Source of the DNA: Eledone cirrhosa
Lineage: Eukaryota
Length of the DNA stretch: 64,000 nt
Assembly (NCBI GenBank): GCA_964016885.1
Contig: OZ024742.1
Location: forward strand, 139,438,001-139,502,000
Direction: 5' to 3'
Shown: piece by piece, positions 69 through 48,314 of the stretch
Layout: each line of letters begins with the position of its first letter
Position numbering within the stretch: position 1 is the first letter of the stretch
The notes under the pieces: generated by a model
Database searches by the model: none
Told to the model about the DNA's origin: nothing
The model's input: the letters and a program-made list of their open reading frames with translations, nothing else
Program-made: the position numbers and the translations under genes

Positions 69-92
69 CTGCTGGTGTCCCTAAATGTACAC
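69..92 (+). CDS. Candidate 24-nt micro-exon 1, (x)AGVPKCT
   Basis: tgtatttacAG|CTGCTGGTGTCCCTAAATGTACAC|GTAAGT; canonical sites, length 3n, stop-free in phase 1. Confidence 0.72.
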
Positions 93-227
93 GTAAGTAA
101 TCATTATATAACAATACACATATTTTGTCCATATGAATTATTTTACAAGGATAGCAAGCAAATTTATATTTATTGGTCGATTACAATCTTTGAAAAATCA
201 AATAAGGATTGCTTTATAAAATGTATA

Positions 228-400
228 ATGAAGCTAATGATAACAGAAGCTGAAATACTTGAAGCCCTCAGCGGTTATACGATGAACATATCACCCAGCT
301 ACGGTGGTCTCCTCTATGCGGTTTGCATGATAGAAATGTTCTGCAATGATTATGATAGTCTTCTCTATGAGTTTAACATAGACATGCTAGACTTGTTCTT
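228..400 (+). pseudogene. Decayed non-LTR retrotransposon (L1/Tx1-like) ORF2 fragment, copy A; repeated in each unit
   Basis: Translation ITEAEILEALS..ISPGYGGLLYAVY..DYDSLLYEF resembles the linker motif IT..EI..AL....KSPGxDGxxxEFY that precedes LINE RT domains. Internally duplicated, no RT core. Confidence 0.55.
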
Positions 401-564
401 GACACTCCTTCAACCTGCATGCAGCACAAAGCATTAATACCGGGAATTTCTCTGTTCTGTAATTCGGGGCGTAGTAAAGGTGATATATATTAATAAATGA
501 TCTAAAAGATATTATTTAATTTTTCATTATCACTGTAATGATATATATTTATTTGTATTTACAT

Positions 565-582
565 CGGCTGCTTCTACTAAAC
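565..582 (+). pseudogene. Disabled 18-nt paralogous micro-exon, (x)AASTK; present in every unit
   Basis: Lies at the homologous position in an internal diverged duplicate of the micro-exon block (~510-900 vs ~20-400): tgtatttac[AT/GG/AG] CGGCTGCTTCTACTAAAC [AT/GT]AAGT. No copy has both AG and GT. Confidence 0.55.
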
Positions 583-724
583 ATAAGTACTCATGATATA
601 ATAATATTTATTTTTGTCCATAAAGATAAATTATGTTTGTTACAAGCATAGCAGGTAAATTTACAGTCATTGATTTGTTACTATCTTTGATAAATCAGAA
701 AAGAATTGTTTTATAAAATGTTTA

Positions 725-43600: not shown

Positions 43601-44495
43601 CTTATTTGAATTTTTTTAATACTTAATGTTAAGAATTATCGAAACTTTCAATATTATATATTGAACTGGTGTAGGAAATAAAGAAAATGATATAGTATAT
43701 ATATATATAAATAGATGAATGATCCGAAAGACAAGAATAAATTGCTAATTATTAACATTATGATATATATGTGTGTCTCATTTAAACATAAGACTGACGT
43801 TATTAGTTCTAAAATTATATTAATTACATCATCTATATTAGATAGCAAATGTATAAAAGCTAGGACTTCCATTAAACTATACATGTTTCTGTAATATATT
43901 ATTTATAAATGAAGGCGGTGGATTGGCAGCATCGGTAGAGGGTCGGACGCCATGCTTTGAAGCATAGAGTTACGGTCCCTTGCCATTTTGAGTTCAAACC
44001 CCACCTAGGTTAACTTTGCCTTTCAACCTTACGGGCTCGATAAAATGAAGTACCAGTAATGTACTGGGTAATTGCTGGCCTTGTACCAAAGGTAGAAACA
44101 ATTATTTATAAATGAAAGCATTGCTATTTCTGATACAATATCAGTCGATCTGTCTTATTTGAATTTCTTTAATACATAATTGTTTCTACTTTTGGCACAA
44201 GGCCAGCAATTACCCAGTGAATTGCTGGTACTTTATTTTATCGACCCCCTAAGAATGAAAGGCAAAGTTAACCTCGGCGGGATTTGAAATCAGAATGGCA
44301 AGGGCCGTAACTATATTCGTCAAAGCATGGCGTCCAACACTCTACGGATGCTGCCAATCCACCGCCATTTCTTTAGTACTTAATGTTAAGAATTATCGTA
44401 ACTCTCAATAATATATATACTGAACTGGTATTAGAGAAAATAAACAAAATAATTTTTGATCATTATCATAATAAGATATATCTCTGTATTTACAG

Positions 44496-44519
44496 TTGCT
44501 GGTGTCCCTAAATGTAAAC
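44496..44519 (+). CDS. Candidate 24-nt micro-exon 11, (L)AGVPKCK
   Basis: tttacAG|TTGCTGGTGTCCCTAAATGTAAAC|GTAAGT. Confidence 0.72.
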
Positions 44520-47500
44520 GTAAGTAATCATTATATAACAATACACATATTTTGTCCATATGAATTATTTTACAAGGATAGCAAGCAAATTTATATTTAT
44601 TGGTCGATTACAATCTTTGAAAAATCAAATAAGGATTGCTTTATAAAATGTATAATGAAGCTAATGATAACAGAAGCTGAAATACTTGAAGCCCTCAGCG
44701 GTTATACGATGAACATATCACCCGGCTACGGTGGTCTCCTCTATGCGGTTTACATGATAGAAATGTTCTGCAATGATTATGATAGTCTTCTCTATGAGTT
44801 TAACACAGACATGCTAGACTTGTTCTTGACACTCCTTCAACCTGCATGCAGCACAAAGCATTAATACCGGGAATTTCTCTGTTCTGTAATTCGGGGCGTA
44901 GTAAAGGTGATATATATTAATAAATGATCTAAAAGATATTATTTAATTTTTCATTATCACTGTAATGATATATATTTATCTGTATTTACAGCGACTAATT
45001 CTACTAAACATAAGTACTCATGATATAATAATATTTATTTTTGTCCATAAAGATAAATTATGTTTGTTACAAGCATAGCAGGTAAATTTACAGTCATTGA
45101 TTTGTTACTATCTTTGATAAATCAGAAAAGAATTGTTTTATAAAATGTTTAATGAAACTTACTATAACAGAAACTGAAATATTTGCACACCTGGCCGGTT
45201 GATCAAGCGGCAAATCACCCGGTTACGATGGCCTCCTTTCTGAGGTTTACATAGACAAGCTAAACTTATTCTCCGATGGTTATGATGGTCTCCTCTATGA
45301 GGTTTAAACAGACATGCTTAATTTGTTCTGGGCTTAATCCAGAGAAGTCAGTATGTCTCCAGCTCACTGCTTGAGTGTCAAATCCATGCAGTTCAACTGC
45401 TTTGACAAACACTGGACGGACTGGACAATGACATTTGTTTGGGTCGTCTGGTTTTGTCTACACCTCCAGGTGGTTAAGGACTGGGATGAGGTAGCATGGA
45501 CATACACATACATACACACAAAGGCATTGTTTTGATATGCACCCTTTTTTCCTGCTATTAATGTTGTCTCTCACTCTTTTAAGTTGTGAAATAGACTGGT
45601 TAGCTACGCACGCAGCTGACACATTTCAGCTCGCTTCTGTATTGCTATATAATGGTTGATCGCATTTAAAGTCCGTTAAAGATTCTTGGCACTACCATTG
45701 TTACCATCGCTTTCCTCTAGCCTTGGAGACATAAACCGAATGCTACCATTCTATTTTATATCAATGTGAACTGCTATTTCTAATGGCCATCTTCTGATCC
45801 TTTGATAATTTATGTGTGCGACACGTTGACTGAGTGCTTCTGACAGGAACGAAAAGATTTATTCTTTTTAGCTTCCTGTCCCCATGTAAAATTTGTAAAT
45901 AAGTGGCTAGTTGAGAGATAGAGTCCTATCGATTGCCAGTTGCTAATAGCTTTACCGTGTCAGACGTCACAAACAGTCATGGCCGGCATAGACTGGTCTT
46001 AGGATTCTGTCGATCGATTGGTTATTGATTAGGCGATACCCGCTGATCAAGCTGCATAAGCCGATTGTGCATTGTTGCATAATATATGCAGACAGATGGT
46101 GCAGTGCACCTTATTGGTGCCTTAGTGCGGTAGAAACTCGAGTCCGGGAACCTAATAGGCACCCGTTTTAAGTGCGTTGTGTTGATGCAAATAATTTGTG
46201 TATACTCTGGGAATGTATCTTACATTGCCCATGGAGTGCGCTGAGATACAACCGGTACTGGCATTGATAAATATGCTGGGTCCGTCAGCCCTTGTTATAT
46301 ATATATATATATATATATATATATATATATATATAAATATATATATATATATATATATATATATATATATATATATATATATATATATATATATATATAT
46401 ATATATATATATATATATATATATTTATTAAAATAGCAGATTAAAGTTTAAGCAAAGAATCGCTGCTTTCACCCTTAACGGGATCTTCGGAAACTTAAGG
46501 GTGAAAGCAGCGATTCTTTGCTTAAACTTTAATCTGTTACTTTAATAAATATTTGCTCTACGGTTCTTATATATTTGATATATATTTATCCTTATCGAGC
46601 CCTCTTTGGATTTTAGTCTTCAAGTTTATTATTATTACTATATATATATACTTATATATATATATATATATATATATATATATATATATATATATATATA
46701 TATATATATATATATATATATATATATATATATATATATATTGTAATACTTTGGGAGGGTCATGTTGCCAATAAGAAACACACGCACGTGCGTGTGTTTC
46801 TTATTGGCAACATGACCCTACCAAAGTATTACAATATCGGTTTAAACACACGTTTTCAGAATCTTGCTAAACAAATTCAGAAACGATATATATATATATA
46901 TATATATATATATATATACATATATATATATATATATACATACATATATATATATATATATATATATATATATATATATATATATATATATATATATATA
47001 TATATATATATATATATATATATATATATATATATATATATACATACATACATATATATATATATATATGTGTGTGTATGTATGTATGTAATTCGTCGTC
47101 GACTAAAGCTGCAACCCCACCAAGTTTACTTGGTGAGGAGGGTGATTTTGGATACCCTGCAGGACAAAAAACAAAACCTAGCAAAGGGCGGAAGAACTCT
47201 TAAGAGTCAACAGCCATCCAAAAATCTGTAAATATGTCTATACATGTATATGTATATGTAAATCTGTATATGCATGTGTGCATGTATATGTATATGTGTG
47301 GGGACATAGAAATTGTCGGGCTGGATACGATATCGCGCGGTTAAACCCCTGGGAGTGAAGGACCACTAGTCTTTGTCATGACATTCTTCTAGGAAAAGGC
47401 AACTCAGGAAACTGGGATAACTCCGACATAAAACCTGCGGCTCAGTAGTTGCCGATGATGTTGATCTTTTCTTCTTTTCGGGTTATAGCTACTGTCGCTC

Positions 47501-48290
47501 AGAGAATGGGATTGGCTCAGTGCACAGTATTTCCTCACTTTAAAAAACATCTTCACGCACACGCATTGCACAATGGTATTAATTAATAATTATTAATAAT
47601 GTTATATCGTGCAATGGCCATACTTGATAACAAGGGGGCAGCCATCATGTATGTATATGATATTAAATAACAGTAAGTATAAGTAGAATTTTTAGACGTA
47701 TACTTTACACACTATATATATATTTCTCAGTTTTCTAAAATGTCGCACAATAGTAAGTCTGTCGAGTGAGTAAAGTAGTCATTGTTGATTTCTAATCACG
47801 TTCTGGAGACTAAAATATATATAATGACTTAGGGAGATAATTTTCTTGGGTCGGTAAGGCGTTATAACGAAATATAAGGCCATATAATGTACCTTCGAAT
47901 ATATTCATTCATTAATATCGTTTATAAAACAGAAAAGAATTGCCTAATTAAATGTTGTATATTATATATGCTGTAAATTGATATATCATTTAATAATAAG
48001 ACTGACGATATTAGTTCTTAAACTATATACAAGGACGATGGTCAAGTCAGATAATTTCCAGCCAATAAATGTGCTTAACACACAGTTCAATATTATGACA
48101 TGATTACTAGCAACGAGCTTGGCGTTAGATGTCGAGATTCTGTTAGAGGAGGCGGAGACTCCACCTCGTGCGATACTTAATGTTAAGAATTATCGTAACT
48201 CTCAATAATGTATATTGAACTGGTATTATAGAAAATAAACAAAATATGTTTTAATCATTATCATAATAAGATATATCTCTGTATTTACAG

Positions 48291-48314
48291 CTGCTACTAC
48301 CGCTAAAAGTACAG
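48291..48314 (+). CDS. Candidate 24-nt micro-exon 12, (P)ATTAKST (no Cys)
   Basis: tttacAG|CTGCTACTACCGCTAAAAGTACAG|GTAAGT. Confidence 0.72.

Follow-up and report, generated by a model that had tools for sequence, protein, structure and literature searches.

Three predicted tandem micro-exon genes

The window analysed here – 64,000 nt of the Eledone cirrhosa genome, at G000:C3:139438001-139502000 of 3.0 Gb – carries part of an array of 24-nt micro-exons, each set in its own tandem unit of 2.8-6.3 kb (with a single unit of 13.6 kb). Over the 662 kb of C3 examined around the window, the array belongs to the last of three predicted genes, referred to here as A, B and C, which lie on three tandem segmental copies more than 99% identical outside the arrays. 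The micro-exons are best read as phase-1 coding cassettes whose replacement sites are about tenfold more diversified than silent or intron sites, with selection favouring new residues the likely cause.

Scanning both strands of the window for segments held between the acceptor and donor flank strings yielded 13 copies – the set used for the diversity and frame tests on the window – all on the plus strand (69-61951) and none on the minus strand, with ten distinct sequences among them. An earlier note on this DNA had also counted 13, correctly, although the last begins at 61928, beyond the end (48314) it had given for the series. An exact acceptor flank is found in 12 copies and an exact donor flank in 10. 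Together they form the middle third of the gene C array (69..61951, 13 of its 33 intact cassettes). Read in phase 1, their inner codons spell AGVPKCT at 69..92 (AG and GT intact), PATATCT at 6392..6415, AGVAECT at 10250..10273, AVVPKCA at 13056..13079, GVTPNCT at 19399..19422, AGIPKCT at 23277..23300, 27085..27108 and 35354..35377, AVTPNCT at 31510..31533, GDTPNCT at 40662..40685, AGVPKCK at 44496..44519 and ATTAKST at 48291..48314 and again, as the thirteenth copy, at 61928..61951.

Genome-wide, 44 exact matches to the acceptor–N24–donor pattern were found, all on one strand within C3:139.177-139.539 Mb. The full cassette catalogue of the locus holds 97 exon-like segments, 62 of them with AG and GT intact (7 in gene A, 22 in B and 33 in C). 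The main type accounts for 48, every one exactly 24 nt long; besides these there are four 24-nt types of greater age, a single 15-nt copy and 34 copies of an 18-nt type. All 62 intact cassettes are multiples of three in length (60 of 24 nt, one of 15 and one of 18), which serves as an unbiased check.

The predicted first exon – 49 coding nucleotides with an ATG start, a hydrophobic product and a phase-1 GTAAGT donor – is identical in A, B and C and sits 11-13 kb before the first intact cassette of each; in gene C it lies on the plus strand at G000:C3:139400058, which puts it ~38 kb ahead of the window. A last exon, likewise identical in the three copies, is predicted 14-18 kb past the array; it is also in phase 1 and ends in an uncharged hydrophobic tail and a stop codon, with AATAAA 235 nt after the stop. 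The gene C copy lies on the plus strand at C3:139553307, ~51 kb after the window. The codon joining the signal exon to the array encodes Ala in all three genes. The first cassette after the signal exon has an AA rather than an AG acceptor in A (C3:139171817) and in C (C3:139407892), and the gene B array opens with a related, intact cassette.

Interleaved with the micro-exons, ~500 nt after each, the window also contains thirteen 18-nt exon-like cassettes of the catalogue (565..62447, plus strand), starting at 565, 6894, 10752, 13552, 19901, 23773, 27581, 32012, 35850, 41164, 44992, 48793 and 62430. All 13 lack AG, GT or both. Across the locus, 33 of the 34 copies of this type are splice-broken, in three ways (AG>AT, AG>GG and GT>AT). 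The sole copy with both signals, at G000:C3:139514099, has taken its acceptor and 5' bases from one splice-dead haplotype and its last base and donor from a second, and resembles a silent exon switched on by recombination.

When the genome was searched at the DNA level with the unit and with each end exon, no second home of the family appeared among the scored matches (40 of 81 candidates scored for the unit, 3/3 for the first exon and 5/5 for the last), a search that diverged relatives would escape; off the locus, the matches were a 60-nt fragment on C18 and a weak one of 40 nt. The C18 piece (G000:C18:17783707-17783766) is an exact copy of the last-exon stop and the start of the 3' untranslated region, and stands at the end of a retroelement-like stretch.

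Diversity at replacement sites

In the 13 window copies, variable columns number 16 of 24 in the exon, compared with 38 of 404 in the flanks (drawn from 100 nt upstream and 340 nt downstream, splice signals excluded; Fisher p=1.6e-10). A recount agrees with the distribution described in the earlier note: in phase 1, variation touches all eight first positions, six of the eight second positions and two of the eight third positions, and one of the two third-position changes, AAA>AAT, is itself non-synonymous. The spike expected of a sliding-window scan is also there, since along ~3.3 kb of the unit exon diversity (0.217) exceeds that of all 2,233 overlapping non-exon 24-nt windows (maximum 0.126, mean 0.029). 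The flanks had been called almost invariant; this holds for their first 20-70 nt, but further out the introns vary by about 0.03-0.05.

Third positions take only two of 19 changes in the window (p=0.017-0.024), and two of 29 (p=0.001-0.01) in the 42 main-type copies left for the divergence estimates once six of the 48, with truncated flanks, were dropped. The proposed comparison of amino-acid with intron divergence gave the same answer: the proportion of nonsynonymous differences (pN) is 0.270 in the window copies, that of synonymous differences (pS) 0.031 and the intron flank 0.029, while the 42 copies give 0.345, 0.017 and 0.036, respectively. Minimum changes at codon positions 1, 2 and 3 in the larger set number 15, 12 and 2, where base-specific flank rates would lead one to expect 1.8, 2.2 and 1.4. 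All 48 main-type copies together comprise 26 variants, with 30 replacement steps and a single silent one (p=0.0022, given the silent share of 0.24 derived from the flank mutation spectrum). The window copies taken by themselves show 19 replacement steps and 0 silent ones, but this tally counts a two-step codon difference wholly as replacement and is given no weight. At a greater depth, the five 24-nt types (means over 10 pairs) differ at 0.28 of third positions, 0.28 of flank positions and 0.58 of first and second positions. Splice-signal columns are variable in 1 case of 28, compared with 77 of 404 other flank columns (p=0.024), which fits exons in use.

Two central claims of the earlier note are thereby supported: that these are coding micro-exons in phase 1, through the open frames, the intact AG and GT and the frame tests described below, and that selection favours amino-acid differences, through a pN of 0.27-0.35 set against a pS of 0.017-0.031 and an intron divergence of 0.029-0.036, and through the 30:1 ratio of steps. 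The second of these claims depends on the phase-1 frame.

Column 24 – the last exon base, which lies within the donor signal (window positions 92, 6415 and 13079, for example) – is G in 23, A in 15, C in 9 and T in 1 of the 48 copies; a change there alters a residue and could tune exon inclusion too.

Recombination and the age of the variants

The mechanism originally proposed for this pattern combined gene conversion, which would homogenise the introns, with selection, which would spare the exons. Recombination or conversion between units is indeed evident, but the mechanism in that form is not supported: there is no shoulder of diversity beside the exons, and silent sites are no more diverged than introns. 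A 35-kb block is common to genes B and C (119 mismatches over 34,899 bases aligned on the main diagonals); of its 13 pairs of corresponding 24-nt exons, 11 are identical and the other two differ by 6 and 3 bases. The 6-base difference is linked to two differences 29-30 nt upstream that recur in units with the same exon variant, mapping a swapped tract of at least 53 nt that comprises the exon and ~30 nt of upstream intron. Six of the 26 variants are exact single-crossover mosaics of two other variants, a count made without a chance control.

The best surviving alternative, albeit an unlikely one, is that the exons are old variants protected by selection while conversion wiped introns and silent sites clean, so that they would have survived for longer rather than changed faster. 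Such retention would be in keeping with flanks that are not tree-like (181 of 385 upstream–downstream pairs of informative sites are incompatible) and with 25 unit pairs whose flanks are less than 1.2% apart yet whose exons show 3-8 differences; since 46 of 136 site pairs inside the exon are incompatible, compared with 17 of 112 equally close flank pairs, silent sites could even have become decoupled from protected ones. However, where a silent site lies one base from a protected one, its divergence does not exceed that of introns, and the shoulder that retention predicts is missing, with diversity at 0.004 in the last 24 nt upstream and 0.012-0.018 in the first 72 nt downstream. Furthermore, the mapped conversion tract carries the exon with it. 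Conversion, in short, moves and recombines exons, and these show no sign of exceeding introns in age. Import from the older exon types was also considered and rejected: column 2 is T in 48/48 main-type cassettes and G in 49/49 others.

The reading frame

The earlier note took the triplet periodicity as independent support for coding status and frame. This was too strong, since the same columns fit phase 0 (8/8 third, 6/8 first and 2/8 second positions varying in the window); phase 1 is nonetheless upheld by other tests. It seems quite improbable that phase 0 is the true frame, which would turn the products into Leu/Val-rich octapeptides under ordinary purifying selection, next to introns that are merely unusually uniform. 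That reading has in its favour a pS (0.28-0.47) above pN (0.16-0.19), codons 1 and 5 that encode Leu in 48/48 copies through several synonymous codons, and a lack of stops in the 13 window copies.

Across the 62 intact cassettes, though, stops appear in 4 in phase 0 and in 48 in phase 2, but in none in phase 1. Codon usage points the same way. Three haemocyanin frames of the same genome, taken as a yardstick, have G at 0.04 and T at 0.41 of fourfold third bases; the cassettes have G at 0/156 and T at 94/156 in phase 1, compared with G at 75/161 (47%) and T at 5/161 (3%) in phase 0. With one representative for each of the six types, fourfold G still stands at 11/20 in phase 0 (p=5e-10) and at 0/27 in phase 1. 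Phase 0 would, moreover, need silent sites to evolve ~10 times faster than the adjacent intron, and offers no signal-like first exon on the plus strand ahead of any array; the 26 DNA variants would encode 17 products in this frame, compared with 26 in phase 1. In phase 1, silent sites match the intron rate at both time depths, whereas in phase 0 no site class is slower than introns. Both end exons are in phase 1 as well, which is weaker support for the frame than it appears because loose scans find many look-alikes. Phase 1 stands because phase 0 brings stops and a codon usage foreign to the genome.

Mutation, assembly and remaining objections

A mutational cause confined to the exons and involving no selection on the protein – CpG decay, error-prone or complementary-DNA-templated conversion, or trinucleotide slippage – is very improbable. 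The diversity spike does end exactly at the exon edges and finds a weak echo in the splice-dead 18-nt cassette, and the last-exon piece at the retroelement-like end on C18 is a faint hint of a reverse-transcribed message. However, transitions are not enriched in the exon (transitions to transversions 12:18, versus 43:38 in the flanks), single-base steps suffice to link the alleles of each codon across the 48 copies, and we know of no mutagen that spares every third base. The mutational hotspot that the earlier note named as a threat to its reading found no support when tested in its CpG form: just one CpG is common (columns 11-12, present in 30/48 copies), and its silent C is unchanged in 48/48. 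Slippage was likewise rejected, the length being 24 nt in 48/48.

It is hardly credible that we are dealing with non-coding satellite DNA, with a gene that has died or with an artefact of assembly, such as two haplotypes joined in tandem: near-identity of the paralogues outside the arrays (>99%) and the 119 mismatches over 34,899 bases of the B/C block would suit an artefact, but AG/GT, triplet length and an open frame are kept in 62 cassettes, the same variants return in different units in a pattern that follows the codons, two haplotypes would not account for three copies, the 13 window copies lie in one contiguous run without N, and a false duplication of one gene would leave the within-window result unchanged.

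Several considerations weigh against selection on coding micro-exons. Splicing, exon skipping, cleavage and anchoring are predictions, and look-alikes of the end exons are common (34 signal-like and 38 anchor-like in the 662 kb, both strands), although in each copy the stretch from the satellite to the array holds no plus-strand signal-like candidate besides the chosen first exon, and the three copies have no anchor-like candidate in common after the array besides the chosen last exon. The copies compared are paralogues of one assembly rather than independent samples, pS is imprecise with only ~7 silent sites per exon, and strong selection on a single residue within one of 33 repeats is hard to picture. 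The 18-nt cassettes, with a diversity of 0.087-0.098 and 5/5 changes at positions 1 and 2, point where a non-selective cause would, albeit not significantly (0.13 by chance); their diversity is explicable as a relic of recent use, so that they are not a clean negative control. Finally, rapid fixation cannot be fully separated from long retention combined with fine shuffling, because of the incompatible pairs (46/136) inside the exon.

The predicted protein

Joined in phase 1, the exons give open frames of 91 (A), 214 (B) and 300 (C) residues, hydrophobic at both ends, of which micro-exons make up 159 of 276 (58%), 528 of 645 (82%) and 786 of 903 (87%) predicted coding nucleotides, respectively. 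The first exon, of 16 codons, reaches a hydropathy of 3.2 (11-residue window) and is a candidate signal peptide, of a kind that chance look-alikes can mimic. At the other end, the uncharged tail (hydropathy 2.56) ends three residues before the stop; it is a candidate glycosylphosphatidylinositol (GPI) signal, by the general rule that such a signal consists of small residues, a polar spacer and a hydrophobic tail, with no cytoplasmic tail. The 21-residue last exon has no Pfam match.

The region in between is composed of Ser and Thr (30-46%), Pro (4-10%) and Ala, Val and Gly (31-37%), with no aromatic residues. A mature part of this kind – low in complexity, rich in Ser, Thr and Pro and devoid of a folded domain – is expected of a mucin-like surface protein, and the product is predicted to be secreted, GPI-anchored and O-glycosylated. 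Nothing points to a toxin, one of the protein classes suggested in the earlier note. The middle part has no cysteines in A, two in B and 16 in C, where many modules have gained one (11/13 of those in the window); these cysteines could cross-link the gene C product.

Embedded and neighbouring features

Several of the longer unit spacings are due to PIF1-helicase or Helitron-like insertions. Helicase frames lie inside some array units (window 3537-5402, 16546-17916 and 37900-39672), the first of them matching PF05970, and are likely to be Helitron fragments. The 13.6-kb unit contains an 830-codon open frame (window 54806-57295), flanked by duplicated microsatellite blocks; with 118 relatives at 31-48% identity, many carrying PF26215, it looks like a retroelement, presumably a Penelope-like element.

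Just upstream of gene A lies a 63-kb satellite of 45-nt units (G000:C3:139079566-139142864), remnants of which (139235273 and 139375865) precede genes B and C and may mark the origin points of the segmental copies. The satellite was rejected as a part of the genes, its long minus-strand open frames breaking every 200-430 codons. Some 26 kb past gene C, a Thr-rich low-complexity stretch on the minus strand (G000:C3:139579364-139580317) could be a further mucin-like exon or a simple repeat. The three sequencing runs that were found cover intron and exon continuously and behave as DNA of one sample, possibly the assembled one, and so lend no independent support.

Proposed working and implications

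In the working that we propose, a signal peptide would export the product and a GPI anchor would fix it to the surface, the middle forming an extended O-glycosylated chain of eight-residue modules. Unequal crossing-over among the 3-6 kb units would multiply them and set the number of modules; mutations that change one small or polar residue into another would be retained and would spread, with silent and intron changes left to drift. The variants would be recombined by short conversion tracts and by crossovers within the 24 nt, and skipping of the symmetric exons would add isoforms with the frame unbroken.

As for the selective agent, the most likely one, put forward tentatively, would be a microbe or parasite able to attach to the glycosylated coat; gamete or self-recognition comes next as a possible candidate, and structural tuning, for example of the cysteine-rich gene C array, is a more doubtful driver. 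A further, speculative possibility is that the octopus, a free-living animal, has independently evolved a parasite-style variable coat, comprising 62 selected, reshuffled and skippable cassettes along with a silenced reservoir of 33 18-nt cassettes that recombination could re-activate. If so, the glycopeptide coat would differ from one animal, or one cell, to the next, and would work either as a decoy for parasites or as a marker of self, in an animal that lacks antibodies.

If the proposal is right, the locus offers a rare and clean opportunity to read selection from the tandem exons of a single gene, with its own introns as a neutral yardstick, and is a candidate for host–parasite interaction, gamete recognition or self-recognition in cephalopods. 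Automatic annotation will probably overlook such genes, whose 24-nt exons are spread over 43-153 kb.

Comparison with known systems

Exons that outrun their introns are a known pattern in venom and major histocompatibility complex genes. No published report of such a gene in a cephalopod was found in the literature searched, mostly open papers; the gene tables of genome papers could hold it.

The closest architectural likeness is to the micro-exon genes (MEGs) of schistosomes. As described, most of their coding region is divided among symmetric exons no longer than 36 nt, the product has a signal peptide and is secreted or anchored, its mature part evolves faster than the signal peptide, and the genes are confined to flatworms or schistosomes (PMC4350168, PMC8293314). 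On the predicted model, the coding sequence here also lies mainly in exons of at most 36 nt (just 58% of it in gene A), all symmetric and of one phase, with no phase-1 stop in the 62 intact cassettes, and the end exons are identical among paralogues while the array varies. Yet the host is a mollusc, with 39 genome matches to molluscan haemocyanin (PF14830), and the exons sit in cloned 3-6 kb units; the likeness drawn here is one of architecture. Among the best solved structures matched by the haemocyanin are the squid and octopus entries 6r83, 4yd9 and 1js8, and its seven strong domain matches per gene suit the octopod type. Among MEG orthologues, the highest ratio of nonsynonymous to synonymous substitution rates quoted for the mature region is 1.10-1.14 (PMC4350168, PMC8293314); the ratio here, ~9-20, is measured among tandem copies on few silent sites and is not the same kind of comparison.

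SmPoMuc, in Schistosoma mansoni, is close in genomic layout: genomic units of ~1 kb, up to ~20 per gene and with introns more than 93% identical, each carry a 27-nt mucin exon, and the genes form tandem clusters under concerted evolution through conversion and unequal crossing-over (PMC2576457). A short mucin exon in tandem units with near-identical introns is found here too (48 units, non-exon diversity 0.03-0.04). By contrast, an SmPoMuc gene mostly has an array built from a single exon type (r1 or r2), followed by a long multi-exon C-terminal part, whereas here 48 copies of one type comprise 26 variants, nearly all of whose differences change a residue. The predicted model has no counterpart of the conserved C-terminal exons 3-15 either: it needs only one short last exon, although the last intron, of 14-17 kb, could harbour more, and the predicted protein is array and anchor signal only.

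The human GYPB gene holds a silent exon that was revived by conversion, which the single AG/GT-intact copy among the 34 18-nt cassettes resembles. The glycophorin A-B-E genes as a group are three tandem paralogues on ~120-kb repeats, rearranged by unequal recombination and conversion and encoding heavily glycosylated surface proteins proposed to act as decoys (PMC10205821). Unlike the product predicted here, glycophorins are transmembrane proteins encoded by few exons with no internal exon array, and no homology is implied. A different parallel is provided by the MASP and mucin surface proteins of Trypanosoma cruzi, which are GPI-anchored. Their ends are conserved, while the centre is a mosaic of high variability (PMC5636173); they form large intronless gene families, however, in place of a mosaic of separate exons inside three genes.

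As predicted from its sequence, then, the array would work like schistosome MEGs, like SmPoMuc and – in its three-copy layout – like the glycophorins, without being counted as a member of any of them. Should this be borne out, parasites would not be alone in building variable surface proteins from micro-exons, a design that would serve a mollusc too.

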